DNA from: Squalus acanthias | Lineage: Eukaryota | DNA: 64,000 nucleotides | Direction of reading: 5' to 3' | NCBI GenBank assembly: GCA_030390025.1 | Contig: CM059432.1 | Location: forward strand, 46,502,001 to 46,566,000 | In this document: positions 5,631 to 59,512 of the stretch, in pieces | Numbering within the stretch: the first letter of the stretch is position 1 | Layout: each line of letters starts with the position of its first letter | Notes under the pieces: model-generated | Seen by the model: the letters and a program-made list of their open reading frames with translations, nothing else | Database searches by the model: none | Told to the model about the DNA's origin: nothing | Translations under genes and position numbers: made by a program

Positions 5631-6735
5631 GGTTGGACTTATACATATACACATACATAGATAATTGATCACTGTACGTCAGATGGCTTTGCACATGTCC
5701 ATGACGCAACAAGGCCCAATTCCAAGGCCCAAGGCCAACATCCTGCACACCAAGGACGCCTTAAAAATGTCCAACATGTTATTGTGTCAAGCCATTATTC
5801 AAGCGTCCCTGACGACCACTAAAACAATCGTTAGTCCTTACGTATATAAGTGAGGGGCCTAGCTCCTGGTTTAGGTCCACTTACAGAAATTGGGCAGCAG
5901 TGAGCACACTCAGGATTCTTCAGTGGCTCCTGAGGCCTAAGCAGTGGCTGCCAATGAGAGGTAAGTTTTTTTTAAACATTTAAAAAAAAACCTGCCTGTG
6001 GAAGCAAGAGGAGCAGGAGTGATCCCCCGACTCCACAGTCCGCACGATTACCCTACTCATGTGGAACACAACTGAAATGCACTCCACTTGACATGACCTA
6101 AACCCACCTGTATTTCTGGTCATTTAAACAGACCAGACATTCCCCTGCAGCCCCCCCATCCAAGATACTAAACAAACATTAAGGGGGGAATTTTCCAGGG
6201 GGTCAGCGGGCGCGATCGGTGGCGGGTCGGGTGGGAAAGTTTTTTTTGACAGTGGGTCGGGACCCCGCTGTCAACCCACCATCACATGCCTTTCCCAAAT
6301 GTCAGGTCTGTCAGCACTGAGCAGACCCGATATGCAGCGGCGGGGGAGGCAATTCAGGTCATTATGACCTTGTTAACAGAGGATTAACAACTATTTTGAG
6401 CTCACCTTCAGAGTTTACCAGGTCGCCCACAGGGTCCACGCTGCTCGGGGATCACTTCTGGTCAGCTGGGCGGGAATTGAATGGCCGTGGAATCATCTCA
6501 TTACTTGACAACTGCAGATGTGCTATAAAAGCTCTCATCTCACAGCTGTTCACTTTCCAAGCTCAGAAGCTGTTGCTTACTGTATTTGGAAGACAGATTG
6601 CACTTAATGCAGGTTGCAAGTGTTTGGAGCAAACTCTATATCAGTGTCACCTCATTGGAACAACATTTTTAAAAAAACCTGCCTGATAATTTGCTTCTAT
6701 CATCTCAACTTCACCTGTCATCTATTACCTCAGAA

Positions 6736-7912
6736 TGGGTACCTTTTATACTCTCTCACCTTGGTCCTCAGAATCTGACCACGATCAGCGGCCACACCAG
6801 CAGCACCAACAACAAGACCGCCAACCTTCTCCTCAACCACCTGATGCTGCACAGGACAGAGGGCATCAACGCAGGGCTGGACCGTACCGAAGGTGAAACC
6901 CCCAACATAGGGTATACAAGCAGAGGATGAGCTTCCTCAACATGACTGAGCAGCAGTGCCAAAGGAGGCTCAGGCTATTGCGCCAGATCATCGCAGACAT
7001 TTGGAGATTGCTGGAGCACGAACTGCAGCCCAGAGCAGCGGGTGGACACGCCTTACCAGTAGCTGTCAAAGTCACCATTGCCCTCAACTTCTTCGCCTCA
7101 GGCTCCTTCCAGGCATCTGCAGCAGACATTTACGGCATCTCGCAGTTGGCTGCCCACAGATGCCCTCTTTGACAAGTCCGCCAATTATATCAACTTTTCC
7201 ACTGATAAAGCCAGTGTTACTGAGCGTGCGCTCGGCTTTGCGGCTCCGGCTGGCTTCAAACGGGTGCAGGGCGTCATCGACTGCACACATGTGGCCATCA
7301 GGGCACCCCATCATAACCCAGCAGTCTTTGTCAACCGCAAGGGCTTCCACTCCCTCAATGTGCAGCTCATCTGCAACCATAGGAAGATCATCATGCATGT
7401 GTACGCCAAATTCCCTGGCAGCTGCCATGACTCTTTCGTCCACCGCCAGTCCACCCTCCCTCAGCTCTTTGCACCGGATAGCTGCTTGGAGACAAGGGCT
7501 GTCCACTGAAGACGTGGCTCATAACACCGGTGAGGAGGCCAAGAAATGAGGCTGAGGAACATTATAATCAATCACCAGAACTCCACCAGAAGTTTTATAG
7601 AGCAGACAATAGGGTTGCTCAAAATTTGCTTCAGATGCCTGGACAGATCTGGAGGAGCCCTTCAGTATGCACCAGCCAGGGTCTCCAGAATTGTTGTGGT
7701 CTGCTGCGCCCTGCACAACATTAGCGCAGCATGAGGAACAAGGTGCAGAGCGCACAGCCTCATCGGAGGAGAAGGAGGAGGAGGAGCAGCAGGAGGTGGA
7801 AGACGAGGATGAGGAAGACCTGGAGGAGCCTGCGGACCAGATTCCACCAGTATGCGACCACATTGCTGCCCATGAGGCCAGGGATGGCCTCATCATGGCC
7901 AGATTTACTTAA
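6736..7912 (+). pseudogene. Harbinger (HARBI1-like) DDE transposase, frameshifted
   Basis: [86 protein letters not shown]; acidic C-terminus; split over several frames. Confidence 0.9.
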
Positions 7913-8319
7913 CTTTATGCAGCACAGCCACGTGGCTGGCACATGCGTAGCCAGGTTGGCATCATCCCACAGCAACACCATAAAGCATCCCTACAATGAC
8001 CAATCCATTCTTTTCACTGTCACCACCATTGCTGGAACTTAAGGTAGGCCTGACTGTTCACTCTGCCACTTCCAATTGTGCACACACATTTGTCAAAGAC
8101 CACAAAGTTTTCAAAATAAATGATTTAATACAAAAATGAATTGAACGTAAACTTTACAATAACATTTAAGAAAACAATCAAGTGACTACCCTTGTGAATC
8201 TACTTGTGTGACATCTTTCTTTTCCGTGTGCTTCTACGTGGTGCTACCCCTGTAGCTTCAGCAGAGGTAGAGGCAGCCTCCTCACTTCCCTGCTGTGCCT
8301 GCTTAGACGCCTTTGGTGG

Positions 8320-10305
8320 TCATCCTCTGGATTTTGGAACCTGTGAGGGCCCGGCCAAAGTCTGCTCCCCCTGTGGCTGTGCAGGGGCAGACTCGGCCAT
8401 CACTGTACGGGGAGGCATCTGGGGCTCTAACCGAGGGGTTGGCAAGGGTGTAGAAGTGTGAGCGCTTGGAGAGGAGCCCCCACTTCCATGTCCCCTCCCA
8501 CCATCATCCCTCTCATTGGCCACCCGCACTTCTATGCTAGCAAGTAGCTGGAGAGCACCTTGCTGCACATCAGTGGGGCCATGAGGACCCACGTCTACAC
8601 TGACATCCCTCCTAGAAAGGACGTCTATGAACCTTTGGTTTCTGTCCTCCATAGATGCCCATCTATTCTCCATAGATGCCCATCTATCCTCCATAGATAC
8701 CCATCTATTCTCCATAGATAGCCATCTATCCTCTATAGATGCCCATCTATCCTCCATTGATGCCCATCTATCCTCCATTGATGCCCATCTATCCTCCATA
8801 GATGCCCATCTATCCTCCATAGATGCCCATCTATCCTCCATTGATGCCCATCTATTCTCCATTGATAGCCATCTATCCTCTATAGATGCCATCTATACTC
8901 CATTGATGCCCATCTATGTTGCATAGACACCATGTGCTCGTGTGACTGGTGCATTAGGTCCTCCATGCAGGTGGCCATCCTATCTATGGAGGAACCTACA
9001 ACTGCGATTGCCTGCACCATGGTGGTGTTCATGTTGGAGAAGGATTCCTCGATTCTTTGAACACTCGCAGTCACCGCACTCGCAAAACCTGTCAGAGCCT
9101 CCTGCACTTGTTCCTGCAGCTCCAGGATCGCCCTCTTCCTGGATGGCCCCCGAGGCTCAGCGTCTGCATGCTGCTGAGCAGAGCTAGGAGACACCTGCGC
9201 CCTCAGACAAGGAGTCTGCACTGCTGACCCTGTCTCCACCATCTGCTCCTACTCATGTGTGCTGTGTGAGACACCAGGTGACAACACTACTCTATGTCGC
9301 GACGGCCCCACTGAGGTGTGCGTCTCTGCGCTGGTGCTGGCTTGCCTTGTCTCAGGTGACGCTGCGCCCTTGGAGGCTGGAGGCTCCTCTGAAGAGTCCT
9401 CTCGCTCTTCCTCCTGGACAGTGGGGGGGGCTCTTGATGGATCTGTGGGAGAGTAAAGAGATCAGTTAGATATATCATATGTAGATTGCATACAGATACC
9501 ATTATGCACATGATGAGCATTCAATGTCTCTTGACTTCAGCCCCCATATGAGTAACTGATGAATGCCATGTAGCTGTATGGAAACTGATTCCGTCACCAG
9601 GTTGTTCTGATGAGCCCCTCTCTCCGTCCCCCACTTCCAGCTGGTCGACCGCTCCAGTAATCTCCAGGGTAGCCTCCTCTGCACTGGTGAGGATTGCTAA
9701 CAATTGACGGTCTCCTCACATTCTCTCACTCTCCCTCTTATGGGCTCTCTTTTTCTGCAAAGAGGGAAAGAAGAGAAGGTTGAGTGAGAGTGATGGAATG
9801 AGTGTAAGGAATGGATGGGTTAGATCTTTAGAGGGAGACTATGATGGAGTGGGGTGGCAATACCCAGTGGCCTCCTTGTGTGTTGTTAGTTGGTATGATT
9901 GCATTAGGATGAAGGTGAGTGTGAGGGGTGCTTAATAAGATGGGGATGTGATAATGTAGATAGAGAGAGGGATGGGTGAAGGTGCAAGGGATGTTGCAGT
10001 GAGTAAGGATGTGCAGGAGTAGGGTTGGGAAAGGAGAGTGATGGGTAAGTGTGGCTTTATACTCACTTTTCTGATCTTAGAAGATCATTGAAGTGCTTGC
10101 GGCACTGCACCCAGGTCCTCATCACCACCGACCTGTTTGTCACCTCCTCCGCTATCTGCAGCCAGGCTACCTTGGTCTCCTGGGGCAGTCTCTTGCGACC
10201 ACTGGCAGGGAAGAGAACCTCCCTGTGTGCTCTGACTCCCTCCACAAGCACATGGAGGGAGTCCTCGCAGAATCAAGGAGCAGCCCTCTGCCTTTGTGAA
10301 CTCAT
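8320..10305 (-). pseudogene. Harbinger Myb/SANT-like DNA-binding protein gene, 3 exons (~10305-10067, 9754-9598, 9442-8320), disabled
   Basis: LVEGVRAHREVLF...AWLQIAEEV..RTWVQCRKHFNDL Myb-like motif; GT-AG introns readable on the minus strand; in-frame stops and a frameshift near 8890. Confidence 0.8.
8645..8917. repeat. 21-bp tandem repeat (~13 copies)
   Basis: Unit CCTCCATAGATGCCCATCTAT; the minus strand encodes (ASMEDRW)n. Confidence 0.95.
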
Positions 10306-13137
10306 CTTGCAGCCAAAGTAGGCTCAACTGTCCTAAATGAGAAGTGAAATCAAATGGGGCCATTGCCCCATTAAATATACCGGCAGCAAATGCGTCAGCG
10401 CTGACGTCACCAGACCCGCACCTTTTAATTGGGCTGGGTAACGTGCAGGGCAGTCTTAACAAGCCCCATTACGGAAAAATCTTTCCTTGCAGCGGGATGA
10501 AGGCAGCAACGGGCTCACGTGTCACCACCGACCTCGCCCGCCACGGACCCGCCCAGGTGGGGGAAATCGCGGCCTATGAGTGCTTCTTGGTTTTTCAACC
10601 CCCTTGATTACTTTAAATACCCACCTGCACTGATTCTTACCTGGTTTTAAAAAACAATATTTCTCTGTGGTTAGAGTCCGTAACAATGTCCAGTAGTGTC
10701 CAAGTGAGTCTAATATTGTTAATTCCACAATTTACACTGCAGAATTTGTTTTTAAATCACAAGTAAATCTGTTTTTTAAGGAGTTGAGGGTATGGCACAT
10801 TAGATCTGATGCTGGAGGTGCTGAACCTCAAGTGGAGCAACTGTTCACAGCCTGAAGTCTCTGAAAAATGTAACTAAAGCCAAGAGAATCAGTCATTAGA
10901 GTAATAAATTAATATTTCCATAATTGCTAGTGCATCTAATTAAATGTCTTCCAATTACTGGTTGTCGTTTCCTGCCAGATATTACAGACACACAGCCTCA
11001 ATCATGAGCTTTGCACCAGATGTATCTCTCTATGGCCTATATAATTAAGAAGATGGATTAAAATCAAAACTTTCTGCAAGAAAATGTGGACCATCTCACT
11101 TATTTACAGTAGTCTGATGCCACTTAAAAACTCTTGCATTTGCACTTCCATCTCGCCAAATTGTAAGCCAGGACAGCAAGTTATATCTTCATTTGAAAGA
11201 ATAATTCTTTATAAGTCTGTATTTTTTGTAAGAATGCATTACTTAATATGCTATTATTTTAACTTTTTTTTATACTTAAACAAATGCAAAATCTAGTTGG
11301 AAAGTGTTCCAGTGAGATCACTGGGCAAAATAATCCATTGCTTTCTGCAGCAAGGTTTCCAGAACAGCCTGTTCCTAACCATTCCAGGGACTGAGCATTG
11401 GTTAATAACACTCGGGCTCAAAGGATTTTACTGACTAAAAGACATGTTTTTAATATTTAAACTACCTACAAATACTTTAAATATTAAAAACATGTCTACA
11501 TGTAGGGTAGGATGATATCTTCTGAGAACTTTGTGTTAGAAAAGACTTGTTAAGCAGCAATCAAACTTTGACATGTGTCTGAAATTTGCAACAAGGAATC
11601 TCACATTAAAAATAACTTTTATATAGTTTGCAAAAAAAAACTTCTTGCAGTACTTGTGAATTATGTACTCTAATAGACTGGTGCAGAATCCCCCCTAACA
11701 GACTGAAATCTTGCAGCATGAAGTAATTTCTTCCTTTCCATCCATTATGAAGTGGTAAGTCATGTTGCGGAACAAATTTGCATATTTTGTTGCGATTTAA
11801 GCTCCTTATACTCCAATTAACTGACAATTGTGGGAATTACTAACTTGCCTGCAGTAGCTAGTCTCTTCCAGACGTGTGACGGCAAATTGTGAATTAGATT
11901 CTGTTTAGCTTTAACAGAATTTCCCTGTGCTAAAATAGCCTGCAGCAAAAGCATGCAGTGCCTGGCTGGAGTGATAGAGCTGGAGATTCATCACAAGATC
12001 TTGTTACCCAAAAATTGAATTTAGAAATGTAACTTGATATAGAAATATGCATTTCTTTTCAGTGTTGGTGAGACTCTATTCCGCAGCATGAATTCTAGAC
12101 ATTCTTGAGATTTGAGTTCACTTCCTCCATCTTTTCTGGGAAAGTGGTACTGCGTGCCATTTCTTTCTTAAACAAATAAAATAACAAATCTTGAAGACGT
12201 ATGCATTTTTTAGGCTCACATGTTAATGTGTATTAGGGGATGTAGGTCATTTACAATGTGTTCCTTTCAGACATAATCGGGACTTCACGTTGCATGATCA
12301 GTAGTATATAAATAGGAAATGGCAAAAATGCATAGCAGATCTGTTCAGCATTTGAGAGAGAAAGTTATGTTTTGGGTGCTATCCTTCATCAAAACTTACG
12401 ACCTGTTGTACATTTCTGACACTTTTCTGCTTTTATTGCCATTGTCGGCTGTGATTTTCCAATTTGGCAGAATCACAGCACACCTTGGTTGGGACACGAG
12501 TTCCACTTACCTCGATGATCCGCTCCAACCCCACCTCCGCCGCGCCCCCCACCCACCCCGAGATTTATTGAGTGATCTCTCAGATGATTTTCTGGATTTG
12601 CCTAATTTAAGCTGGCTCCCCATCCTGGGAGTGTGCGGAGAATTGGTGCAGTAGGCCTCAGGAGCCTGCCTCAGTGTGCCCAGGAAATTGAAAACAATTA
12701 ATTTTTTTAATTATTGTTTTGCCAATAATACCTCATCCTAAGTAATTGATCACCCTGCTATCAATTGGGAAAGCTAAGCCAGACTTTTCAATTTTAAAAG
12801 CCCTCATTTCTACCATAGCAACCCTAGATGCCAGGAATGCACAGATGTTTCTAGTACCCAACATTGTAAGGGCAGAAATGACAAAAAATACATCAGACAG
12901 CATATTCCTATTATTTACATGCTATTACAATATGCCCCCCATATGTGTTTGGACATATTGTATATCTCTGTCACCTCCTAATGGAAAATCTTGAATTGGT
13001 GAAGGAGAACCAGTTGAGCAGCTGCTGAAGACTTTCTGTTGCATTGCAGTGGAGTTCCGTCAGAGAGCTACATTGGTGAGACGTGTCCAGTACAGCATCC
13101 TAAGTGGTTTCTAATTAATCTACGCAGAAAACTCACT

Positions 13138-15370
13138 AGCCTAGAAATTGGAGTAGGCTGGGAACCTGTCGGTGAAGTTAATGGCCGCCCAGAGTAATAG
13201 CCCAGGTATTTTGGTGCTGCCTGCTCATTTACATAAGCGCAGTGCAAATCTTGGAGTGCAAGACTGTTTTTCCGGCGGTACTCTCAGCAGGAGGCGCAAT
13301 GTAGCGTGGCCGTTACATCCCTGGAGCAAGAAAACTGATGTCTTAAAGCAAGGATGTCATTTTAGAAAGCAATATCGGTCCCTTAAAGGGGAAATGCCTT
13401 CTAAAATGAAAAAAATTAAAATCATTTAAAAATAGGCAGTCTTTAGCCTTAGAGCTCAACTGCCTTCTGAAAATTTTTTAAAAAAAAATTCCCAAATGGC
13501 AGTCTTCAGCTCTTAAAGCTGAATTGCCTTCCAGATGTACAAAAATGGTAAAAGTGCTTCAGCACTAACACAAATGGCTCAGCAAGCCAGGGAATGGCAC
13601 CCAGGGTTTCACACGCAGCACTCAAGCTTTGTGCAGGGGGTCAACACTGCAAGAAAGTTCCTCTACTCACAGGGGCCAGGAGGCCCTCCAGAAAGAACAA
13701 TCTGAGAACAGATCACCGAGGCCGTCACTGCCAGCAGTGTCACTCCCACAACCTGGCTCCAGTGCCCAAAGAAGCTTCATGACCTCAGATTAGTGGTCAA
13801 GGTCAGTGAATGCATCTTCAAAAACCATCTCCTACCAACTGCACCACTAGCCTCACACACTGCTCATTGCACAACATCCCGCCCCCCTGCCCCCCCATCA
13901 CTCACCTACCAACAATCTATACCAAACACGAGGCACACCTCCCATTCCCAGCTTCACCTCACCCCCTTGGAGGAGACGGTGCTGGCTATTCTTGGCAGGG
14001 GCATGGCTGAGCCCTTGGCTGGAAGATGCAAGATGCTTGTATCTTCATACGTTATTCTCCTTCTCACATCCCACTTCCCCCTCATCCCACAATATCTTCT
14101 GATTTAGAAGGTGCACATGGTGTAAGAATGCAGCTCTTGCTTTCCCGCCCTCACCACAACTCTACCCTTGTGCCTTCCTCATTTTACACACCCAATGAAT
14201 CCAGCCTGCCCAGCCAGTGGTTGACCAAGAAGAGAGAGAGGAGAATGAAGAAGAAGAAGAAGAAACACCGTCACTCGATATCACAGTCCCAGCCACCAGC
14301 TTCTCAAGGTCGTCCTGCAAGGCCATCTCCAGTGTCCCCCACTGAAAGTCAGCAGTCTTCCACCAGCCATGCTGCAGCCACTGGGGTAGCACTGCGTGAC
14401 ATCAGTAGGATAGGCAAAGGCACACACAAGACATCACTAAGAGAATGCATAAGGGTGATGAGTTGATTTCTTGATGTCATGTTGGATGATAGATGTATAA
14501 AGTTGGATTGGAAAGTTTGCTTTGTGGCGGCTTTTATTTCAGCATTGTGGCCAAGAGAATGCTCTGATGGTCAGCAACAGATGGAAGGTAAGGTGTAGGA
14601 CAAATGTTGAAGGGGGAATTGGGGTTGTGGTCACTGGTACCACAGGCTGGATGATTCCATCCCGATATCCCGGCCAGAAAAGGGCTGTCTGTGTTGCATC
14701 CTTCCTTCCGCTTCCTCCTCTTCTGCTTCTTCTTCTGTGTCCTCCTCTTCTGTGTCTTCCTCTTCTGCTTCTTCCACTTCCCTCTGCAAGCGGATGCTGG
14801 AAATCTGAAATAAAAGCAGAAAATGCTGGAAATACTCAGCAGGTCAGGCAGACTCTCGACCTGAGACGTGAACTCTGTTTCTCTCTCCACGGATGCTGCC
14901 TGACCTGTTGAGTATTTCCAGCATTTTCTGTCTTCTCAGAGGCCTTTCATTTACCATCGGAAGCCTTGCAAGCATCCAGCAGCACTCCCTGCACACTTTA
15001 AAAACATTTAACATCTGTTGCACCAAGCCACTACTTCAATACAATATTAAAAAAAGTCAAAACGCTTAATTCCAAACTTACCTGAAAGATGTGTGTGTCC
15101 CTTTAAGAAGCGCCGACAGCATCTCTGCAGGGCTGCTTCATGCACGCTTTCCCGAGCGTGCTTAGGACCCGGCGTTAACCAGAGAGAAAAGTTTGCACGC
15201 CGACTGACATCATTCTCTGCTCATTTACATTTCAGGGGCCAGCGCTCTGGCCCTTACTAAAATTGCGGCTGCCGGGTCCCGTGCCGGAGGCGGGCAGAAG
15301 TGAGGCGGCTGCCATTTCTTTCCCGAAACGGTCCTTAACGGCCAGCCCAAACACTACGAATGTCTAGGCC
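13138..15370 (+). mobile_element. Non-autonomous Harbinger derivative (Myb remnant on +, transposase acidic tail on -)
   Basis: TIRs AGCCTAGAAATTGG and rc GGCCTAGACATTCG; TSD ACT/ACT; TTWLQCPKKLHDL Myb remnant at ~13750-13800. Confidence 0.8.
14793..14935. repeat. Palindromic Penelope-like terminal remnant nested in the Harbinger derivative
   Basis: Arms CAGAAAATGCTGGAAATACTCAGCAGGTCAGGCAG and CTGCCTGACCTGTTGAGTATTTCCAGCATTTTCTG; related degenerate copies at ~12335-12440, 23225-23425 and 26230-26670. Confidence 0.55.
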
Positions 15371-15471
15371 ACTGTATCTGCACAGAATACAGCTTTTGTT
15401 TCATCAAGAGATAGAAAAAGCTTTCCCCATGAATGGAATCAACCCTGTTTTCTAGGATGACAGCATATAAT

Positions 15472-16237
15472 GGCCCTGAAATTCGCCTCTCTGGCTGGCC
15501 GCGGGGGTAAGGATCGCACGCGCACTTACCTACCGCGCCTGCCGTTGGCCTCTGGGCCCACGGGGACTTCAGCTCCTGGGCCTGCTCCAAGTGCCGGCGC
15601 GCAGGGCTTGCGTATCCCAGGGGCGTAGTTAGTGCGATGCGTCCCCTGGGATCACGTGGGCCATGGAGAGCCAATGGCAGCAGACCATCTTTCATTCATA
15701 GATTTGACAGGAAGACCTGTCAAATCTATGAATTGAAATCGGCCCCAAAAGAACAGCTAAACTTAAAATATTTTTTTTTTAAAACCATCACATTTATAAA
15801 ATAACTATAAGTTAAATAAATTAACTACTTTAAACAAAAATTTAAATTTTTGAAAAAATTATAATACTTTTTAACAGTGCTAAAAATAAACTTACCTTTC
15901 TTTAAAGTATCTAAAAAAGATAAACCTGTTGAAAATTTTTTTAAATTATAATTAATTAACCACTTACCTTGTTGAAAACGGGTCCTGTGCCTCCTTTTTA
16001 AAAGCGCAGGTTCTTCAATACTTACCCTCCCGGAGAAACCTGAAAAAACCCCTAAATTTGCTGCGTGCGCGCAGCCTCTACCGCGCACGCGGTTCACCTC
16101 TGAACCGCTCCCTTCACCAGACCGGAAGTTCCGGTTTCCCGCGCATGCGCAGTGCATGCAGGAAACCGGCACTTCAGGACACCTTATGGGTGAGTACACA
16201 GCGCGTACTCACCCAGCAAGTGCCGAATTTTTGGTCC
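15472..16237. mobile_element. Harbinger-type MITE, family A copy 1 (multi-hairpin)
   Basis: TIRs GGCCCTGAAATTCG and rc GGACCAAAAATTCG; TSD AAT/AAT; homologous to 58782-59512. Confidence 0.85.
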
Positions 16238-17167
16238 AATATGTATTTGTGACTTTTTTAAGACATCTAAAGAAAATTAGCTAATAAAAATTAATTTATA
16301 TTTTCACATAATGATTTACATGGATGAACTGTTTTGACATAGGGGAAATTATTTTTCAGGAGGAATATATTGCTACTTTATTTGAGGAGATTGATGTCAT
16401 TACATGTAATATAGCTTTAATTCATGCGATTACAGCTTTCATTTGAGCATGTGTTACTCTTAATCATACACTCATTCACACCAATAAAATGGTGATTATA
16501 TAGATTGTTGCAGTACATATGATAGTCAGTGATTCAAAAGACTATAATTAACTGAATAATACCTATATTTCTCAAACAGTACTAATGCAGTAATAATATA
16601 TAATAGTCAGCTGAATGATTAAAAAAAGAAAGAACTTACATTTACATAATGTCTTTCACTTCATGATGTCCCAAAGAGCTTCCCAGTCAATGAAGTTTTT
16701 AAGTGTAGTCGCTTGTAATGTAGGGAAAAGAAAGCTATCCTTTTTACTAAACAAAACATCTCTCTTTTACTTAGGCTGTCATGACTGTGCTGGTTAATGT
16801 TTTAATGATGCCAAGCTTCAAGGTCAGAAAATGCCAAATTAAATTGTCATCAGTAACAATTATCCTCACAACTGATCTCGTGTGAGCAGGTTTTCATCTT
16901 TACTCTCAAGACATTTAAATAATCAGTTCCGTTAAAATACCTAAGACTGTTTAATCCTCATATAAAATTTGTTTAATTTAAATGAATTCTTATCTACACC
17001 TAACTGACAGTGGTTTCTCGAGTCAGTCCACTCAAAATGGCATGATTTCATTCAACGTCTCATTTAGACTTTGCAGATGAGATCAGCTAAGTTAAGTTTG
17101 TCGTTTACTTCATAGCACATAGTTATTTGAGGCAAAAGCTGCATAAATATTAAAAGGACAGCACGCA

Positions 17168-18015: not shown

Positions 18016-18780
18016 GGGGTAAAAATTGAGTCGCGCCCCATTTGGGGCGCTAACCTCGCCGGGGCGCGACTTTTAGCGCCCCGAAAAAATTAGCGGCCCC
18101 GCGCCGGAACTTCAGTGGTTGCGCCCCAAGAGGGAAGCGGGGCGCCACTGGAAGCACCCCGCATCCCTCTTGGGGCGCTGCGAGTGAATATCCTGGCGCT
18201 ACGTGCGCAGCGCCACGCGCTGCGGCACGTCGCGCCGCGGTATTGCAGGCCTTCCTCCCCTTCTTAAAGGGGAGGGACCCTGCGCAGCGCGAACCGGGGC
18301 CCAGCTGGGCCCCCAGGGATCGGGAGTGCCGGCAAAAGAGCCCGGCACTCAAGAGAAGTGCCGGGCTCTTGGAGCGCAGCCGGCACTTCACGGTGGGGGG
18401 GCTTCACGGGGGCCGGGGACAGCAACGGGGGCAGGTGCTGGCAGGCGGCCAGCAACAAAAATGGCCGCCTGCCACCTCCCCTTTAAATATCGCCGCCCCG
18501 GCCGCACGTACGCCTCCCTGAACCCGTCGGACATAGCGTCTGGCGGTAAATCAGGGGGCGCGACTGAAGATCACGGCCGGGGCGCGAGCGGGGTGCTGCG
18601 CACGGCGATGACGTCATCGCCGGCGCGCGCCAGGCGCTACCGGCTGCCGCCGCCGCTAACCTCCCACTAAATTCTTCGGGAGGCGTGGGCGGCGCTGCGC
18701 CCGGGCGTTAGCTGCTTTACGCCCCATTAGCGCCCTCTTAAGGCGCTAACGGGAGGCGCAAGCAGCTGAATTTTTCCCCC
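18016..18780. mobile_element. Harbinger-type CpG-rich MITE, family B copy 1
   Basis: TIRs GGGGTAAAAATTGAG and rc GGGGGAAAAATTCAG; TSD TTT/TTT. Confidence 0.8.
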
Positions 18781-19961
18781 TTTGTCTATCCACTGCTTCT
18801 AAAGATGCAATTCTTCATCATCATCAAGGTTTTTGCAGTGATTTTGTTTATAGATCAATCAGATGGTTGTTAGTATTGGGATAAGTGTGGTCCTTTTGTT
18901 TATATTTACTTCGGTAACAGAACACTTTTTATTTTGAATGTTAATTTAAATTTGTATAGAAGAATCTCAACTTCCTGGAGCCAGGAAAATTGAAAAGGGT
19001 TGATGGAATGATTGAACTTTCCCTGGGGACTTTACCTGTCCCATCAGTTAGTGAACAAACGATTGAACTGATGCGGAGAGGATGTCACCTGGATCTTCAC
19101 TTACGCAACTGAAGAATGCAGATTCTGGTTTCAGTGAGTCTGCCATACCTATTACTGTGGGTATAATTTAATAATGGCACTAAGGAAGTTATTATCACTG
19201 TTGGTGATCTGTTTTGTTGCCTGCTTTTAGGCATAACTGCAAATTGTTAGTTTTCTGTCTTTGTTGCCAGGCTTCAGAGAAGCACTCAGCTTGGTAACTC
19301 TACAAAGGGTTGAGAAACATATCAATGAGTCAGCCAATTTATCCTTTGTACAGTATAGTAGTTGACTATATTACCCTAGATGCCTCTTTACTGCTATGTA
19401 GCTATATGTTAATAAATGCGTGCGTCAAAAAGGCTCTGTCAAAAGAAAGAGCCAAAGAGGATTTTCACCTTGATGAAGGATATGGAATTTGCCCTGATAT
19501 TATAGCCTGTGCAACTCACAGATCCCTAGCAATGTAGAGCTGACATCAGTTTAGATAGAGTGAGATACTGTGTGCTGGGCAGTTAAATACAGAAAACTTA
19601 AGTTATTTTTCTGAGATTTTTAGTTCAACACATTGGTTACTCTTTGCCTACTGTTAAAATAATTTAGAACAAATAGAATCATCATGGATTTTGTATAAAA
19701 ATGGCTATTGAGACGAAGGTATTTCAATAACCATCATTATCTGAAGTTAAGATATTTTGGTCATAGATCATGTCCATGTACTACTCAGAGAATAAAGCAC
19801 ACTGCTTCAGAGTATGTAAGAGATAAATATTTTGGATAACTCCATTTATCACAATCTGGATGAATGACCAGACTATTCCCAATGGCCCACGACTGCCATC
19901 CAACTATCAGAGAAGCACAGACTGTGACACGATTCTCCTTCATGGAAGAGTAAAACACTAA

Positions 19962-20720
19962 GGGGGTGAAATTCCCCAAGAGGGCCGTTTGGGGCGTTAA
20001 GTGAAAAATGTTTGGAAACGCCATGCAAACATTTGTTAAATTCCCTCTTTTTGGTCCAAGAGGGAAGTGGAGCGCTAAATCAAGCACTCCACTTGCCTCT
20101 TAGAGCCCAAGAGATGGGGAATGTCCCGATCTGGGGCGATATGCTCAGCAGCGCCACGTGTGGCCACGCTGCTTCATTGCAGGGCCTCTTCCCTGCATTA
20201 AAGGGAAGGGCCCCACGCTGCGAGGTCGGCATGTTTCATTGTAGATTTCTGGGCCACCGGGGAGTGGGAGTGCCACGCGATTAACCCGTCACTCAAGCAG
20301 AGTACCGGGCTGAGCGATTGCAGCACGGACGTCGCGACCGGTGGCTGAAAATAATTTTTTTTTTTTAAATCAGCTTTTTTTTGTTGGCCGGCCGCCCACC
20401 GTGCCTTTAAGTTGTGTCCCACGAGCGTCCGGCCTCACTGTGCGTGACCCCTACAGCAGTCAGTAACATCGCCCAGCGCTGCTGCGGGGTGCAAGTGCAA
20501 ATTTTTCTCCCGAGGCGCTACCGGGGCGCTGCGCCTGGAGATGACGTCATGATCTCCGAGCGCAGAAGATTGGGGCAATACTCGGCAGCGCCACCGCTAA
20601 CCTCCCGTGGAATTTCGCGGGAGGCGCGGCTAGCGTCTCGGGGGGGGGGGGGGGAGGGAAGCCATTTGCGCCCTGTTAGTGCCTCCCACCAGAGGTGCAA
20701 ATGAGCGGAATTTCGCCCTC
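19962..20720. mobile_element. Harbinger-type CpG-rich MITE, family B copy 2
   Basis: TIRs GGGGGTGAAATTCC and rc GAGGGCGAAATTCC; TSD TAA/TAA; shares GATGACGTCAT, CCGCTAACCTCCC and TTAAAGGG blocks with 18016-18780. Confidence 0.8.
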
Positions 20721-21095: not shown

Positions 21096-21574
21096 GTAGT
21101 GGAAATTTGCAACCCTCAGACAGATATAAACAGACATCAGATTACTGAATACCAGACTGATTTCTTCAAAGAAATACAGAATTAAAGTTATTGTCACAAA
21201 AGCCACTGGGGAAATATCCAAATGGAAGCAGAACAGTTCCACAGCCAGATGCAAGCTATTCTTAACTGTTCCAGAAACCGCATTTACCCCCAAGACAATA
21301 ATGCCCTTTTTCATATTTTGACTTATTTTCTGTTACTTTGTAATATAGCACAATACATCATTTATTTTATGTATTCAAGGACATGACTAAAGGATGCTAC
21401 CAGGACAACTCATCTATTAAAGGTCTTTGGTCTTCACCTAGGTTTCTGATTATTTTAAATCTGTAACAAGGACATACGTTTCTCAAATTTCACTCATGTG
21501 ATTTCTGGAAACACAGAATAAATTGCCGAAATTTTACTGAGGTGACAATGGGAAAATTACAGATTTACCACAGC

Positions 21575-22980
21575 CCACTTCATGCTCCAACAGCCACTTT
21601 ACTGCATTTGGAAGACAGATTGAGCTTTATGCAGGTTGCAAGTGTTTGGAGCCAACTCTCTATCCAGTGTCACCTCATTGGAACGAGCTCTCTCACCTCT
21701 GACAGATCGCTTCTGTCATCTCAGGTTCACCTGCAATCTATTCCATCAGCATGGGTACAGTTTATACTCTCTCACCTTGGGCCTCAGAATCTGATCACGA
21801 TCAGCCGCAACACCAGCATCAACAGGCACACCAGCAGTATCAACAACCACACCAACCTTCTCCATAATCATCTGATGCTGCACAGGACAGAGGGCACCAG
21901 ACCACATTGCTGCCCGGGAGGCCAGGGATGGCCTCACCATGGCCACATTTACTTCACTTGACGCTGTACACCCTGGCTGCCACATGATGCGCCAGGTTGG
22001 CACCACCCCACACCAACAACATAAAGCATCCCGACAATGCCCAAGCCATTCCTTTCACACTCATCACCATTGCGGGGGGTACCGTTATGTCTCACCATTC
22101 ACTGCAACTCACTAAGCCACTTCCAAAGGTGCATACCAATCTGTCCAAGAATGCAAAGTGTTGAAAATAAAGGTTTCAATGTTTGACACCACCTTAACAG
22201 AAACTTCACATGAATATTGCATAAAACACCCAAGTGCCTACCCTTGCGTGCTGTTAGTTGGTATGATTGCACTAGGATGAGGGTGAGTGTGAGGGGTGGC
22301 TAGTGAGATGGGGACGTGATAATGTAGATAGAGAAGGATGGCTGGAGGTGCAAAGTAAGTTGGTGTGAGTAAGGCTGTGCAGGAGTAGGGTAGGGAAGGC
22401 AAGGCAGAGTGATGGGGATGGGATGAGAGGACAGCAGGATGAGGTTGAGTGTGGCTTTGTACTAACATTTCGTGATCTACTGAGATCATTGAAATGTTTG
22501 TGGCACTGCGCCCAGGACCTCCTGACCACATCCCTGCTTGTGCCCTCCTCTGCAATGTGAACCAGGCTGTGTTGATCTCTTGGGGAGGTGTCTTCCACCC
22601 ATGGGAAGAGGACCTCCCTGCGTGCTGTGACTCCCTCCATAATCATATGGAGAGAGTCATGGGAGAGCCTGGGTGCAGCCATACACCTCTGTGCAGTGCT
22701 TGTCAGTGTTTGCAGCACCTCACTGCTGCAGAACACTGACAGCACAACTGTCAAAAGAAAGTTGGCCATGGTCCCTTTAAGGAAACCGGCTGATGACGCG
22801 TCATCAAACGACGTCACGAGACCCGCTTCCTCTAATTAGCCGGGAAACTTGCTGGGCGGGCTTAACAAGCCCAATCACGGTAAACTCATTTCAGAGGCTG
22901 GGATGGAGACAGCAATGGGGTCAGGACCCACCACCGACGTCACCCGCCATGGACCCACTGAGGTTCGTAAAATCCAGCCC
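21575..22980. mobile_element. Internally deleted Harbinger copy related to 6183-10574
   Basis: Collinear blocks matching ~6550-6865, 7856-8196 and 9875-10560; Myb exon 1 on - (VVRRSWAQCHKHFNDL); right TIR rc GGGCTGGATTTTACG. Confidence 0.85.
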
Positions 22981-24738: not shown

Positions 24739-25281
24739 AGGGGAAAAATTGGACTGCGTTGCACCCATTTTCCGGGCGGAGAACGGGTGCAAAGAGGTCA
24801 CATAGGGGGGTCAACACCCCGCGCCCGAACAGCGTCGGAAACTTGTTCGTGCCATCTTGGTTTGGGCACTGTGGAGGCCTTCCTGGCTACTGCCTAAAAT
24901 ATGCATTAGGGCCTTGAATATGCTAATTAGGGGCCTAACGCCTGCTTTAGGGCCCATTCTGGAAATTGGTTTGCCCTGGTCAAGCCTGCTGTGTTTGTGA
25001 TTACTTGGTCTACCTTAAAGGGACTGCTGGAGGTCACCACCATAATGGTAAGTTTATAAAAAAAAAATACTTACCTTAATGTGGAGCCAAGAGGGACAGG
25101 AATGCTCCTCCTGGTTCCACATTAAAACTTTGGGCTGCTGCCAGGCAGTGTTTAGCCCTTCCCTTCGGCCTGTGGCAGACTGGGACACCAGCTAATGAGG
25201 TCGGTGGACCAATTTGCCATGATCCCGCTTGGGCCTTGGGCCTTGGGCCTTGGGCCTTGGGCCTGATCCAATTTCTAGGCC
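24739..25281. mobile_element. Harbinger-type MITE with an internal (TTGGGCC)n array
   Basis: TIRs AGGGGAAAAATTGG and rc GGCCTAGAAATTGG; TSD CAC/CAC; 7-mer repeated ~5 times at 25229-25264; related fragment at ~5870-6050. Confidence 0.7.
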
Positions 25282-25851: not shown

Positions 25852-25985
25852 GGGGGTAATTTTGACTTTGGTGATAGTGTAAAATTGTGAAGTCAATGGA
25901 AATGAAAATGGGGAGAGGTGTGTAATGGATGGCTGAATCCATATCAAATGTTTTTACGCTATCACCCAAAGTCAAAATTACCCCC
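25852..25985. mobile_element. Small palindromic MITE
   Basis: ~35-bp TIRs GGGGGTAATTTTGACTTTGG.. and ..CCAAAGTCAAAATTACCCCC; relatives at ~26480-26626, 27665-27788 and 49259-49438. Confidence 0.8.
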
Positions 25986-26759
25986 ATTCATTTATGAAGT
26001 AATGAAAGACAGCAATATGAATATAAATCCCTCTTCAATGTTTTCTATTCAGCCTGAGTCTTGCTTTGCGGTTTTTCAATGCGAAGAGATTTTAAGGCAC
26101 AAAGTTAGAGTTTAGTAGTCATGACTAGTCGATAGAGCTTCAAGTTATACTTATGTCATTGACACAGTGAACGGCATTTTTTTTGTAAGGGTTCTTAACA
26201 AGCAAAACATCCTGTCAAAAGTGAATCAAAAAACAGAAACGGTAGAAATATACACCAAGTCAGTCAGTATCTGTAAAGAGAAAAGGCAGGTTAACGTTTT
26301 GAGTATAACCCCTCATCAGAACTGAAAACTGAAGGACAATCAAACATTTTAGTAGGGTTGGGGGAAGAAAAGAAAGGAGAAGAAACAAGAGAGATTCTAT
26401 ACACAGAGAGGAAGTTAATGAGATAAATGACCTGCAAGCTGTTTAATAGAAAACTGTGTTTCAAGCATTTCCCATTCTTGGGGGTAATTTTAACCTAACC
26501 TGTCCCGGCAAGAAGCTGATAGGCCGTCCGTTTAACACCCCGTCCGATTTTATTTTCCATTGGGTGTAAAATGGGCGGGCGATCCCATCCCATCAGTTAC
26601 CTACTGGTTGGGTTAAAAGTACTCCCTGTTTCAGATTTCCAGCATTTGCAGTTCTTTTTTTCTTTTTGTTTATACTGTCAAAAGTGTGCAGCCTTTACAC
26701 ACAGTATACACAAATGCTAAAGAACTATCAAATTTAACCAGTGAACTCTCCAATTGCAG

Positions 26760-26898
26760 GACCAATGGTTTTGGCGTGTTCGGAACAATAAGGTTCTGGA
26801 TGGTTACCCCATGCAGATTGCCTATTTCTGGAGGGGTTTGCCTTCTAACATTGATGCAGTTTATGAGCGGCCTGATGGGAAATTTGTGTTTTTTAAAG
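26760..26898 (+). CDS. MMP16: MMP16 (MT3-MMP) internal coding exon (probable exon 7), hemopexin domain
   Basis: ttgcAG|GAC acceptor and AAAG|GTgag donor; 139 bp; translates [46 protein letters not shown], matching the recalled MMP16 hemopexin sequence. Confidence 0.95.
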
Positions 26899-27431: not shown

Positions 27432-27885
27432 ACCCGTCTTTCGGATGAGACATTAAATCAAGGTCCCGTCTACTCTGAGGTGGACGTAAAAGATGCCACA
27501 ACACTATTCAAAGAAGAGCGGGGGAGTTTTCCCGATATCCTGGCCAGCATTTATTCCACAACCAACAACCTCAAAGCAGTTTAATTGGTCATTTATCTCA
27601 TTGCTGTTTATGGGTCCTTACTGTGCACAGATTGGTTGCTGCATTTCCCTACATCAAAAAAAATGGGGCCAAATTTGACTTTGTGCGACAGTAAAGTCAA
27701 TGGAAATGAAAACCAGGAGAGATGTACAACGAGCTGCCGATTTATTAGCACCCCTTTTACACTATCACACAAAGTCAAAATTACCCCCAGTGACTACACT
27801 TCAAAAGTAATTAATTGGCTGTGAAGCGCTATGGGATGGCCTGAGCTCATGAAAGGCACTATATAAATGCAAGTTCTTTCTTTCC
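27432..27885 (+). mobile_element. Deu-domain SINE (SacSINE1/AmnSINE1-like) with a small MITE inserted at 27665-27788
   Basis: CGTCTTTCGGATGAGACATTAAATCAAGGTCCCGTC..GGTGGACGTAAAAGAT core; tail GGCACTATATAAATGCAAGTTCTTTCTT. Confidence 0.7.
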
Positions 27886-42186: not shown

Positions 42187-43227
42187 ACCCACTCACCAAG
42201 TTTTAATATGTAACTATTCAATGTTCTGTGGGTGTTGTTCACAGGGAGTCAAGATCAAGTGTAGTTGGCAGGCAGGGGGATAAGTGGCCCAGGGCTGAGT
42301 GACAACTGCAATGGTGGAGGACAGAGGGGGAAGGTGGAGAAGGAAGGTAATGTAGATTTAGAGGTTGGAGGGGAAGAAGGTAGCAGAGGATTAGAGGCTA
42401 TGGAGGGGGGTGAGGTAGAACAGGGTTAGAATTTGGGGGAAAGAGGATGGTAAAGTAGGGCTAGAGGCTGAGGTGGGGAGGGGAAAGGTAGGGCAGGATT
42501 TGAGGCTTGGGAGGGAAGGCAGTGGAAGGTTGGAAGCTGGGGAGGAAGGGAAAAGATAGAGCGGGGTTAGCATTACAATGCTACAAGACACTGGTCAGAA
42601 CCAAAACTGGGAATAATTTGTGTGATATTTTCCCTGCATTGACATAATGAAGTTTTGATCCAGTGACAAGATGAACGGAGACAGTGGACAGGGGTTCTGA
42701 TACCACTAAATTTACTATCAGATATATATAGGTTCCTTTAACATTCATTTTATAAAGCTTATCTAAATAGGCATTCATCCTACAAAAAAATGCTACATAG
42801 GAAAATCAGAAATAATTTACTTTTTTCCCATTTGGAACTCTTTTTATACATACATTCAACATATGTGCAGAAGTGAATTATCAGCTAAATGATTAGAATT
42901 TTACAAAATGAATAAGTATCAGGAATTAGGAACATCCAATAGTCATAAGCACTGGTAAGAACAGCTTCTGGTTTTACTGATTATCTCTAAATTTAGCTAA
43001 GTTTTGGGGTCCAATTTTTTTCCGCCAATGTTCTCCCATTTTTAGTCTAGAAATAAAACCTGAATAAAATCCCCCCAAAAAAACTTGGGTTGTTAAATTG
43101 GCAATGAAACTGACATTACTGACTCTTTAAATATTTATTCATAAAACCTTTGTTGAATGTTTTGTTAATTTATACTTGGAAAGAAAGAAATTTATACTTA
43201 GAAAGAATAACAACTCAAAGCAAGGTA

Positions 43228-43652
43228 CAGGAAACTTTCGTTTATCCGGCACCCAAATATCCAGAATTCTCGCTTAACCGGCAAAAATCATCCTCCGAAA
43301 ACGCCTCTCAAATAACCGGCAATGTTGCCGAGTCGCAGTCGAGTCTCTGCGAACGCCGAGTGCTCCGAAAAATCCTCTCAAATAACCGGCAATGTTGCCG
43401 ATCCCGAGTCCGAGTCAGAGTCCGCGAACGCCGATTTAGTCAGTAGGGGTACTTTTCAAAAGTGCCACTATTCGGCCTCCTGGCGCTGTTGCAAGTCCGA
43501 AACATTGCAGTAGCATGAGTAGATTCTCCCGTGCTGCTTGGAGTCTCTTTGTTAAAAATAGCCTCGGTAGATATAACTCTCTGTTATCCGGTACTTTCGA
43601 TAAACCGGCACCACGCCGGTCCCGTCGATGCCGGATAAACGAAAGTTTCCTG
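43228..43652. mobile_element. Tc1/mariner-pogo (Tigger-like) MITE
   Basis: Perfect 24-bp TIR CAGGAAACTTTCGTTTATCCGGCA; TA TSD on both sides; internal direct duplication. Confidence 0.9.
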
Positions 43653-47420: not shown

Positions 47421-47441
47421 CTTCAGTATATAACAACATTG

Positions 47442-47649
47442 AGAAGTCGCACAACACCAGGTTATAGTCCAACAGTTTTATTTAAAATTACGAGCTTTCG
47501 GAGCTGCTGCTCCTTCGTCAGGTAATCTACCTGACGAAGGAGCGGAGCTCCGAAAGCTCGTAATTTTAAATAAAACTGTTGGACTATAACCTGGTGTTGT
47601 GCGACTTCCCATTTTTGTCCACCCCAGTCCAACACCGGCACCTCTGCAT
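47442..47649. mobile_element. Penelope-like inverted terminal remnant with hammerhead-like cores
   Basis: ~80-bp near-perfect inverted arms 47443-47608; CTGACGA-stem-GAAA core; 13-bp TSD TATAACAACATTG. Confidence 0.75.
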
Positions 47650-48229: not shown

Positions 48230-48380
48230 GGAGTAAGTACTGGGTCTTTAAAGAAGCTACGCTGGAGTTAGGATATCCTCAGAATGTGGTGGAGCTAGGA
48301 AGTGGAGTACCTTCTCAGGGTATTGACACAGCAGTGTGGTGGGAAGACGTTGGTAAAACCTACTTCTTCAAAGGAGACAG
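48230..48380 (+). CDS. MMP16: MMP16 internal coding exon (probable exon 8)
   Basis: ttcttgtAG|GG acceptor and ACAG|GTtagt donor; 151 bp; phase-compatible with the previous exon; (G)SKYWVFKEATLELGYPQNVVELGSGVPSQGIDTAVWWEDVGKTYFFKGD(R). Not in the ORF track. Confidence 0.95.
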
Positions 48381-55150: not shown

Positions 55151-56284
55151 ATTGTCTGGTATCAGAAAACACAGCCCAAAGCACTTGACAGACAATGAAT
55201 TCCATTTGAAGTGTACTCACTATTGTTTTTTAGGCAAACATGACAGCCAACTTGCATAAAGCAAGATCCTATGATGAGACAAATAACCACTTAATCTATT
55301 TTAGTGATGTTGGTTGAAGGACGAATGTTGACTAGGACACCTGGAAAATTACATACCTTTCTTTGAATAGTGCCATGGGATTGTTCAACAGGCAAGCAGG
55401 GATTTGGTTTATCATCCGAAAGACTTCCAATAGTGCAGTGGCCTCTCGGTGTTATACTAAAGTGTCACCCTGAATTATGTAATCAAGTCTTCGAGTAGGA
55501 TGTGACGCCACAATTTTCTGACTGAAAAGGGAAAGTGATACCAACTGAGCCAATCTAAGGGAACCATTTACAATATCAGCTAAAATGGGTGACAGGAGGT
55601 GATCAGGAGTTTAGCTGAAATGGGGTTGAGAGGGCAAGAGGTAACCCTTATGATGAGCTTAAGAGGGATTGTGGTGAAACTGGAGAAAATAAGGTATAAG
55701 GCTAGCATGGGATGGGTCTGGGGAAGGTTTGATTTAGTGGGCAGAGGGAAGTGGGAGGAGCTGCTGAATCGATGGTCTCTATCATGGAGATCAGCTCCTT
55801 GTACTTGTTGTTAGAGGTGAAGGTGGAGAGGATGTGGAAAGGAGTTTTAGGAGGCAGTTGCTGCAGAGAAAAGAAGCCTGGGGCTGTCTTTGCTCTCCAG
55901 GATGATCCCAGAATAGATGCTTAGGTAGAGGAGAGTGAGGCCCTGTAGAGATTGATCTGCAGTTTGCGCCCCTTGAACTTGATGGAGTGAAGAAGGGAGC
56001 TGTACTGGGGAATTGATTGAGATGGGAGGCAGTGAAGGTTTTGCTGGAGACAAGGGCATTAAAGGTGGAGATAAAAACAAGTGACTCACCTGCCTTCACC
56101 AATCGTGACAGATAAAACCCCAGCTCCTTGCTCAAGACCCGCCAATTAAAATCAATGATTGGAAAATTGAAATTGGCTGCGCTGACCTCCACACCCAGTT
56201 CTTCAATTTATGCTCCTGATGAGCAAGACTCTGGGAGCAGAGTTTTGCAATTTTCGGACTCTAATCTCTGATAGCATTATTTAA

Positions 56285-56445: not shown

Positions 56446-56514
56446 AGCATTATTTAAACCCAGCTTTAGAACATCACATGGTTCACATTCATTTTTTTCT
56501 CTTCTGCCTATAAG

Positions 56515-57718: not shown

Positions 57719-58781
57719 TAATTTTAATGGAAAAAAAACAAATCACAGCTTGTGTGGCCACAGTTTCCTGAGATCTGCTTCCTGCAAGCACTGATCCGTG
57801 CTGAAAGTGTCAGATCACAAATCACCCTGAATATTTCATCCTCCTCCTGGGTACCTTTCACCTCATTGTCTGAACAATTTCATACCTTAGCTGTCTCCTG
57901 GAATTTCCCGGTAGGATGCTCCTGTTCACATTTCATTGCTTCCCCTTTCATTGGAGTGCTCATTTACCTCAATTTTTATCTTTTTAGTGACTTTTCACAT
58001 TAAAGGAATGTATAGAACCATTAAGGCCATTGAGGTTCATCTGGCCAATCCAAAGTTTAAAAAATAAAATACTGTACTCTGTCTGATATACCCCTCAATA
58101 ACTTCTTTCACCAAAAAAACTATCCAAGTCCATCTTGAATTTGCCAACACCATCCATCTCTACTATCTCGCGGGCAGGTATCCACATATTTACCATCCCG
58201 TGTGCTCCCCTAGTCAAATTTACACTGTCTGTTCATCTTTCTTTTTTTGGAGGCTTAAGTTCCTGCCCCCTGGATACAGAATTTATGGTTATGGCAAAAA
58301 AAACTAAATTTAGCTTATCTATTCCCTGTAGAATTATTAAAACTTCTATAAAGTCTCCCCTGAACCTTGTTTTCTCCAATGTAAACATTCCCAACCTGCT
58401 TAGTCTCTTCTCAAATCTCAATTGCCAAATCAAAGAGTATCAGCTTAGTTGCTGTTCTCTATACCCTCTTTCCAAAGTCAGATTGTTCTCACTCTATTAC
58501 AATGGCCAGAATTTCATACAGCGTTTCAGATGGTGCCAAATCAGTGCTCGAGACAAGCTTAGTATTAACCTGTGGCACTTGTATTCTATCCCTCTGAGTA
58601 ACAACAACTTGCACATGTATAGTGCCTTATATAATGTCCAGAGGCATTTCACATAGACTTGAGCACATAATCTAAGCTGACATCTCAGTGCAGTACTGAC
58701 AAAGTGCTGCATATCGGAGGTGCTATCTTTTAGATCAGATTTTAAACCGAGGCCCTGTCTTCCCTGTCAGGTGGACATAAT

Positions 58782-59512
58782 GGCCCAAAAATTCGTGAGG
58801 GAGCCTTCGTGCGAGGGTAAGGCTTCCCCGCGATCTCTCACTGCGCGCTGGCTTTTTCAGTCCCAGCTCGCACGAACTTGATGTTCTGGACAGCAGCTGT
58901 GCAGGGCTTCCGTATCCCACAGGCGCAGTTAATTCGTGCGAGCTGTGGGATCACGTGACTCAGTTAGAGCCAATGGCAGCACACCATCTTTCATTCATAG
59001 CTTTCACATAAGTGCTGTGAAAGCTATGAATCTATACCCCCCAAAAGAACAGCTAAACCTCAATTAAATTTAAAAAAAAACCATCACATTAATAAAATAA
59101 GTATAGTTAAATAAATTAACCATTTTAAACAAAAAATTAAATTTTTGAAAAAATTTAAAATCTTTTAAAAATAAACTTACCTGTCTTTAAACTCTCTAAA
59201 AAAGATATACCTGTTAAAAAAAATTCAAAATAATACTTAATTAACTACTTACCTTGTTAAAAGAGGGTCTTACTCCTCCTTTCATTATGTCTAAAATGTT
59301 CCATGCTTACCTGCGCGTTCAAAGCACTAAGTGCACTGCGTGCGCGCAGCCTGTAGCGCGCACGCGGTTCACCTAGGAACCGCCCCCTTTTGAATTCACC
59401 AAGTGCCGGTTTTCAGCGCATGTGCAGTGCATGCAGAAAACCGGCAATTGGAGACAGAATACGCGAGAGTACACAGTGCGTACTCTCGCGTAGCGGCACT
59501 AATTTTTGGGCC
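58782..59512. mobile_element. Harbinger-type MITE, family A copy 2
   Basis: TIRs GGCCCAAAAATTCG and rc GGCCCAAAAATTAG; AAT/AAT flanks; homologous to 15472-16237. Confidence 0.85.

Follow-up and report, generated by a model that had tools for sequence, protein, structure and literature searches.

A shark Harbinger-type MITE whose internal hairpins carry compensatory changes between two copies

We analyzed a 64,000-nucleotide stretch of Squalus acanthias DNA (the window) and confirmed, by aligning the full sequences of two copies of a MITE, that their internal hairpins are kept through compensatory changes at a level well above chance. A first-pass annotation had placed the copies at 15472-16237 and 58782-59512, and these coordinates and those of the stems were as written on recheck. 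We consider it evenly balanced whether copying of one hairpin arm onto the other, combined with selection for mobility, accounts for the pattern; if so, the hairpins would be DNA-level features and no host RNA function would be needed.

Element copies, family and genomic setting

The two copies and their ends were located as follows:

15472..16237, + strand: MITE copy 1 (subfamily 1), non-coding, PIF/Harbinger-type (BLAST, contig depth)
58782..59512, + strand: MITE copy 2, representing subfamily 2 and located within the host gene's last intron (BLAST; alleles present as loose ends in runs X3, X7, X11 and X12)
15469..15471 (left) and 16238-16240 (right), + strand: target-site duplication AAT of copy 1 (past 16240, 12 X3 contigs continue with dissimilar sequence)
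58779..58781 (left) and 59513-59515 (right), + strand: target-site duplication AAT of copy 2, in a palindromic flank ACAT-AAT-ATGT
15472..15486, + strand: left terminal inverted repeat (TIR) of copy 1, pairing imperfectly with 16223-16237
16223..16237, - strand: right TIR of copy 1, in inverted-repeat pairing with the left TIR

The evidence supported both stretches as copies of a non-autonomous PIF/Harbinger MITE of 730-770 bp. They were homologous end to end, with 75.5% identity over 645 columns by BLAST and 542 of 731 aligned bases identical in the end-to-end alignment. The TIRs are ~15 bp long and imperfect, and have a G-rich start followed by AAATT, in the style of the other Harbinger ends of the window. 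The 3-bp duplication AAT flanks 2/2 copies on both sides, and the target was palindromic in 2/2 copies (n only 2), with A-x-A-T before and A-T-G-T after the duplication. Short TIRs and a 3-bp target-site duplication are marks of Harbinger elements in the available text of two earlier reports (PMC9179366, PMC9710019). The longest ATG frames were 110 aa in one copy versus 31 aa in the other, so that no long frame was common to both. High contig depth was confined to the bins 15462-15492 through 16237-16267, with values of about zero outside them. Taken together with thousands of variant contigs and the presence of Harbinger transposase and Myb genes nearby, the TIRs, the AAT duplication, the palindromic target and the absence of a common ORF upheld the original description of a Harbinger-type MITE.

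Other identities were considered and rejected. Helitrons and Helentrons make no target duplication and have TC and CTRR ends, and this identity was ruled out by the TIRs and the 3-bp duplication. A Kolobok/T2 or piggyBac MITE, both of which carry a TTAA duplication, was ruled out since the flanks are AAT, and a fold-back palindromic MITE was ruled out since end-to-end pairing was limited to the short TIRs. No third copy was found in the 64-kb window by BLAST or nhmmer, and pattern scans of metagenome, viral and prokaryotic genome contigs gave 0 matches to the element.

The MITE family is clearly large, with thousands of variant contigs in public runs. Between 0.34 and 0.78 of the element's sampled words were present in public runs labelled with six organisms (18 of 20 rows); the shares of rows X19 and X20 were small. 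Contigs matching the element, which are not copy numbers, amounted to 17,066 in X3, 4,817 in X7, and 623 and 895 in the remaining two of four runs. Alleles of copy 2 recurred as loose ends in runs of three organisms (A, C and D), indicating that the window copies represent two subfamilies. The observed/expected ratio of CpG was 0.98 and 1.02 in the copies versus 0.41 in the window, and values so near to expectation suggest that both copies are young. Since the copies are young and stand for two subfamilies, the compensations arose between master lineages. We also observed that copy-2-type alleles at 16078-16101 made up 66-92% of the depth in X7, X11 and X12 versus 6-39% in X3; X12 and X3 share an organism code despite this gap, and contig depth sums are unreliable, so the gap may be technical.

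The host gene was recognized from the following exons:

26763-26897, 48232-48380, ~56510-56630 and ~59710 onward, + strand: hemopexin exons of a membrane-type MMP gene (domain matches; closest solved structure MMP14)

We take it to be an MMP16/24-like membrane-type MMP gene. Its introns measure 21 kb, 8 kb and 3 kb and abound in Harbinger elements and in LINE fragments, CR1-type ones among them. Copy 2 ends ~200 bp before the last acceptor, and copy 1, which is upstream of the first exon seen, probably lies in the preceding intron. A Harbinger transposase (PF13359) fragment was found at 7156-7506, with best matches that were all shark proteins, and ~6184-10575 holds a degenerate two-gene Harbinger with convergent genes, a DDE_Tnp_4 transposase on the + strand and a Myb_DNA-bind_5 (Myb/SANT, PF13873) gene on the - strand. 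When compared within the window, this element and the MITE had a similar TIR style and no common interior, and no autonomous element with the MITE's interior was found in the 64 kb.

Several further repeats were noted. The degenerate two-gene Harbinger contains a 21-bp tandem repeat at 8641-8931 and has an internally deleted relative at ~21500-22980. Related Harbinger-like elements with a Myb-gene remnant (by eye) occur in opposite orientation at ~13139-15270 and 49875-52157; the latter carries a CR1-type insertion and ends in a TIR resembling the one described here, and is a possible partner lineage. Short Harbinger-type MITEs (125-180 bp) with long TIRs were seen at 25852-25986, 27665-27789, 49260-49439 and 26480-26625, several of them with AAT or ATT flanks, and an element at 43225-43655, with a perfect 27-bp TIR and an internal ~70 bp duplication, is not Harbinger-like.

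Hairpins and compensated pairs

The interior of the element contains the following features:

Arms 15499-15505/15557-15563 (copy 2, 58806-58815/58867-58876): stem 0, from the strand-neutral scan; 3 compensated pairs, overlooked in the first pass
15614..15652 (copy 2, 58914-58951): stem 1; 2 compensated pairs
15694..15733: stem 2, an 18-bp perfect hairpin; 2 compensated pairs, with deletion breakpoints clustered at its tip (15710-15718)
15734..15990: AT-rich core, in which the copies have no G+C-containing stem in common and are 82% identical
16063-16090 and 16089-16108: stems 5 and 5b, unchanged between copies save for the loop ends
16125..16175: stem 3, including an inner stem (16143-16159) and an outer extension; 2 compensated pairs
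16187..16215: stem 4, with an invariant GAGTAC/GTACTC core; 3 compensated outer pairs
58864-58876/58933-58945 (58864..58945): copy-2-specific perfect 13-bp inverted repeat, which competes with stems 0 and 1

Stems 0, 1 and 2 make up a left domain and stems 5, 5b, 3 and 4 a right domain, with the AT-rich core in the middle. We defined stems in copy 1 alone, as perfect, at least 8 bp long and with a G+C content of at least 30%, and obtained 7 stems. Six of these were common to copy 2, and their 65 pairs comprised 53 that were unchanged, 8 that were compensated and 4 that were broken, the broken pairs all being at the loop-closing end. The seventh stem (16167-16174/16218-16225), which copy 2 does not keep (7 of 8 pairs broken), was excluded from the null.

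The 7 compensated pairs that had been counted by eye in the first pass all proved real: 15620/15646 and 15621/15645 in stem 1, 15702/15725 and 15706/15721 in stem 2, 16138/16162 in stem 3, and 16189/16213 and 16191/16211 in stem 4. The eighth (16187/16215) adjoins stem 4. Position 16187 was C in 97-100% of contig depth, and this pair is weak evidence because the T-A pair is peculiar to copy 1 and both changes have the form expected of CpG decay. When 20 changed positions were distributed at random on 64 pairs, the probability of at least 7 compensated pairs was 6e-9; it was 1e-5 under a lenient null in which every double hit was counted as complementary. A strand-neutral scan added 4 compensated pairs, 3 in stem 0 and 1 (16125/16175) in the stem-3 extension. 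Stem 0 also has an unrepaired C-A mismatch at 15502/15560, and a G>C allele at 16107, with 15-52% of the depth, would break a pair of stem 5b, its partner being absent from the 40 positions listed. Relative to shuffles, both element ends had z values of -3.7 to -7.9 when folded as RNA and -4.4 to -7.8 as DNA.

We compared the rate of change in the different parts of the element. The copies differed at 20 of 128 sites in arms, 18 of 105 in loops and spacers, 43 of 244 in the core and 95 of 211 in linkers (arms vs loops, P 0.86; arms vs core, P 0.67; arms vs linkers, P 2e-8). The regions of stems 1-5 were 76-92% identical and the core 82%, whereas the four linkers, the first of which contains stem 0, reached only 50-57%. 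The arms were as conserved as the loops and the core and far more conserved than the linkers. Since the arms were no more conserved than the loops and core, the rates fit neutral copying as well as selection. The data do not show that the non-coding cargo is selected for structure, as had been proposed: the arms change at the rate of the loops and the AT-rich core.

A second Harbinger-type MITE pair in the window (18016-18789 and 19962-20720) was also hairpin-rich, with RNA z of -7.5 to -21.7. Its 13 first-copy stems contained only 4 compensated pairs, most changed pairs being broken in a poor alignment, and the reciprocal analysis gave 2 compensated pairs in 3 stems. With few compensated and mostly broken pairs, the second pair offered no independent confirmation. 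The copy at 18016-18789 is extremely self-complementary (RNA z -17 to -22), and a nested hairpin near 18121-18178 and 20058-20101 shows ~3 compensated pairs, most other stems not being shared. In an unrelated element, a fold-back palindromic repeat with two copies (47433-47618 and 56283-56406), one pair is compensated, with A/A arms in one copy versus G/G arms in the other.

Evidence for the RNA or the DNA level

The interiors of the shared stems held 163 Watson-Crick cells, 0 G-T, 1 A-C and 2 other, with few informative sites; stem 2 fell below the G+C filter of this count and has no internal mismatch. The first-pass annotation had suggested that G-U pairs tolerated on one strand only would indicate an RNA function, and 0 G-T pairs inside shared stems gave no such sign. 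At stem edges, G-T pairs on the + strand were seen by eye at 16062/16091 (both copies) and 15626/15639 (copy 1), a slight lean to the + strand, and the folding z placed + ahead in two segments and - in one, with a tie in one. There was no consistent strand preference in folding or in G-T tolerance, and the evidence leans to DNA. The Rfam search suggested earlier gave 0 matches over the window at gathering score and 0 for copy 1 at E up to 1. Four sub-threshold Rfam miRNA matches for copy 2 were rejected as generic hairpins, and a tRNA search found none. Among the alternatives raised in the first pass, a structured RNA was the least supported, with 0 internal G-T, mixed folding z and no Rfam family, while the DNA-level alternatives (palindrome-templated repair, or a cruciform or ssDNA signal) are favoured by strand-symmetric pairing, tip breakpoints, an apparently inverted loop and an arm divergence equal to that of loops and core. 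Covariation that was both strand-symmetric and copy-specific had been named as counting against the original claim; we found the symmetry but not the copy-specificity, since the changes are at the subfamily level.

Among the compensations, 5/11 were of the transition type, compared with 61% in rRNA in the available text of PMC8794818 (P 0.22) and with one third (P 0.29). As this share differs from neither expectation, it provides no argument against RNA; an argument from transversions against G-U intermediates was tested and dropped, since 5/11 separates neither model. The runs X11 and X12, which we guessed to be RNA, had contigs along the element and 0/15 of the listed joints, a result that says nothing on expression or splicing.

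Short motifs kept between the copies were as follows:

15653..15675, + strand: CACGTG and CCAAT motifs, between left-domain stems and kept in both copies
15890..16026, - strand: three 5'-splice-site-like GGTAAG motifs that copy 2 retains; copy 1 has a fourth at 15525-15530

We presume CACGTG and CCAAT to be an E-box and a CCAAT-box, that is, promoter labels. The motif GCGCATG(C/T)GC was also kept in both copies. Copy 1 has 4 GGTAAG versus 0.11 expected, on the minus strand and thus opposite to the host gene's sense; these motifs may be left over from introns of the parent element. Facing GGTAAG/CTTACC-type motifs were seen in several Harbinger-like elements (25047-25075, 5960-5998 and 15506-15530), two of them around an AT-rich spacer, and are possibly fused first-intron remnants of the two transposon genes.

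Breakpoints were concentrated at the tip of stem 2, where 6 of 30 listed joint breakpoints (15/16 joints listed) fell within 9 bases (P 1e-6; 1e-4 over 85 windows). The 7 skips with resolved junctions placed 3 of their 14 breakpoints at this tip (P 5e-4), and these three junctions remove one arm; the remaining 3/6 joints at the tip may be alignment breaks. The loop of stem 4 was read as its reverse complement in the loose end of 6 X3 contigs, with the downstream letters in register with the window, and 6/7 letters of this apparent inverted loop equal the loop of copy 2 reversed (chance 0.0013). The basis for this call is a 30-letter consensus built from short contigs. Since two places are compatible with 7 X3 contigs, the inverted loop could be a misplaced palindrome, or else a library chimera. 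Copy 1 had no counterpart of the perfect 13-bp inverted repeat of copy 2. The stem-2 tip breakpoints, the inverted loop and the copy-2-only inverted repeat point to the DNA level.

Such traces resemble the footprints of template switching, which in the available text of Monttinen and Loytynoja (2022, PMC8794818) are multiple compensations, stem extension, new perfect inverted repeats and loop inversion. The MITE is like the hairpin maintenance described there in having multiple compensations per stem, extension, new repeats and loop inversion. The cases in the text available from that study are rRNA and microRNA genes under RNA selection (PMC8794818), whereas ours is a DNA transposon. Since DNA-level copying gives the same pattern, covariation between two copies is no proof of RNA helices.

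Mechanism, alternatives and significance

For its movement the MITE would depend in trans on a Harbinger transposase and the Myb/SANT protein that partners it. Between the two subfamilies, the arms of short inverted repeats have changed in pairs, and the supporting traces suggest that one arm was copied onto the other by template switching in replication or gap repair. Besides making paired changes in one step, such switching could turn loops around, create inverted repeats and cause DNA breaks at hairpin tips. Resting copies would then decay, so that stems would be perfect only in actively multiplying masters, and symmetric arms would help mobilisation, most likely as inverted pairs of protein sites or as extruded hairpins near both ends. 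Alternatively, transposition-coupled repair might account for the perfection kept in the mobile lineage. The C-A mismatch in stem 0 and the mostly broken changed pairs of the neighbouring MITE pair suggest that near-perfect stems are tied to the multiplying lineage. A more specific reading appears doubtful to us: PIF/Harbinger-IS5-type transposition would have a structure-dependent step in which local hairpins of both subterminal domains, as cruciforms or ssDNA folds, raise mobility when the Myb/SANT-transposase complex reads them or when gaps are repaired, with secondary structure thereby selected in a cut-and-paste element.

Functionless stems could instead be kept perfect by neutral homogenisation only, through arm-to-arm copying during multiplication (e.g. 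gap repair after excision). Arm divergence per site equal to that of loops and core is what unbiased conversion predicts, and the tip breakpoints, loop inversion and subfamily-specific inverted repeat argue that the mutational process is active. This account would, however, need conversion far faster than point mutation on arms of 7-18 bp with loops of up to 51 nt, and the same six stems have stayed in place while the four linkers dropped to 50-57% (arms vs linkers, P 2e-8). Hairpin-tip deletions would moreover wear away unselected stems, and we regard neutral homogenisation as possible, if rather doubtful. We consider a role of the RNA at the level of the element unlikely. Here the MITE would be transcribed from promoter-like ends and its hairpins and 5'-splice-site-like motifs would shape an RNA selected in master copies; on the same unlikely footing, the role would cover stability, escape from silencing or small-RNA production. 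Strong RNA folding, the covariation, the kept CACGTG, CCAAT and GCGCATG(C/T)GC motifs, the enrichment of donor-like motifs on one strand and the two stem-edge G-T pairs on + agree with such a role, but shared stems contain no internal G-T, folding has no consistent strand bias, no Rfam family reached gathering score and the sub-threshold miRNA matches were for copy 2 only. Cut-and-paste elements have no RNA intermediate, which also speaks against an RNA role.

A very unlikely alternative is that the stems serve just as inverted pairs of sites bound by the Myb/SANT protein or by host factors; the double-stranded sequence would then count and folding would not, and the paired changes would follow the specificity of the protein. 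The Myb-like protein of zebrafish Harbinger3_DR does bind a 9-bp subterminal motif, according to the available text of PMC9710019, and the MITE has stems with invariant cores in both subterminal domains. Yet the six arms have no obvious common motif by eye, and G-C, C-G, A-T and T-A swap freely, although a protein that reads sequence would not need such mirroring. Exaptation by the host, as a structured RNA or a regulatory element in the introns of the MMP gene, would fit the same orientation of the copies, one being intronic in the host gene and the other upstream of the first exon seen. We find it most improbable, given the thousands of variant contigs, the compensations common to subfamilies and the youth of the copies (CpG 0.98 and 1.02 vs 0.41), which carry private mismatches.

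Fold-back MITEs such as Made1 fold over the whole element as one long hairpin, with paired changes in the arms, whereas the shark MITE has local modules around an AT-rich core. Tourist-like MITEs have a TAA/TTA duplication; in our element it is AAT. Tourist-like PIF/Harbinger MITEs such as rice mPing are otherwise similar to the shark MITE in the available text of PMC9921582 (see also PMC2836001), being short and non-coding, with short TIRs, a 3-bp duplication and a high copy number, but the six local interior hairpins with paired changes set ours apart. In mPing, internal regions can either enhance or repress transposition, and the available text of that report mentions neither hairpins nor secondary structure (PMC9921582); the premise that cut-and-paste MITEs need only terminal sites was therefore too strong. 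As far as the available text of PMC3016246 and PMC9710019 goes, zebrafish Harbinger3_DR likewise has a palindromic target built on a 3-bp core, W being the central letter (PMC3016246), but its target letters differ from those of the shark MITE (an AWT-type core with ACAT/ATGT flanks). It is a two-protein system with subterminal Myb-binding sites, and in the same portions of text its Myb-like protein binds subterminal DNA without hairpins being invoked (PMC9710019) and no covarying internal stems are mentioned. In the available text on elephant shark no Harbinger was found and neither "hairpin" nor "palindrom" occurs (PMC9179366), and that of PMC9392472 and PMC11893794 held no usable Myb-binding motif. 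In the open literature searched, no vertebrate Harbinger MITE with several covarying hairpins in its interior came to light. The element class and the mutational mechanism are already known, and the covarying multi-hairpin interior is an apparent addition, although repeat libraries may already hold the family.

An RNA helix is commonly considered to be functional once compensatory changes are seen in it. Since textbook covariation occurs here in a DNA transposon without an RNA step, either this is a clear case in which covariation misleads, or it points to an unrecognised DNA-structure requirement in Harbinger transposition. The tip of stem 2 resembles a small fragile site that recurs throughout the genome. 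If the requirement is true, the structure-dependent step could be mapped in shark MITEs, which form a natural library of thousands of copies in several species.
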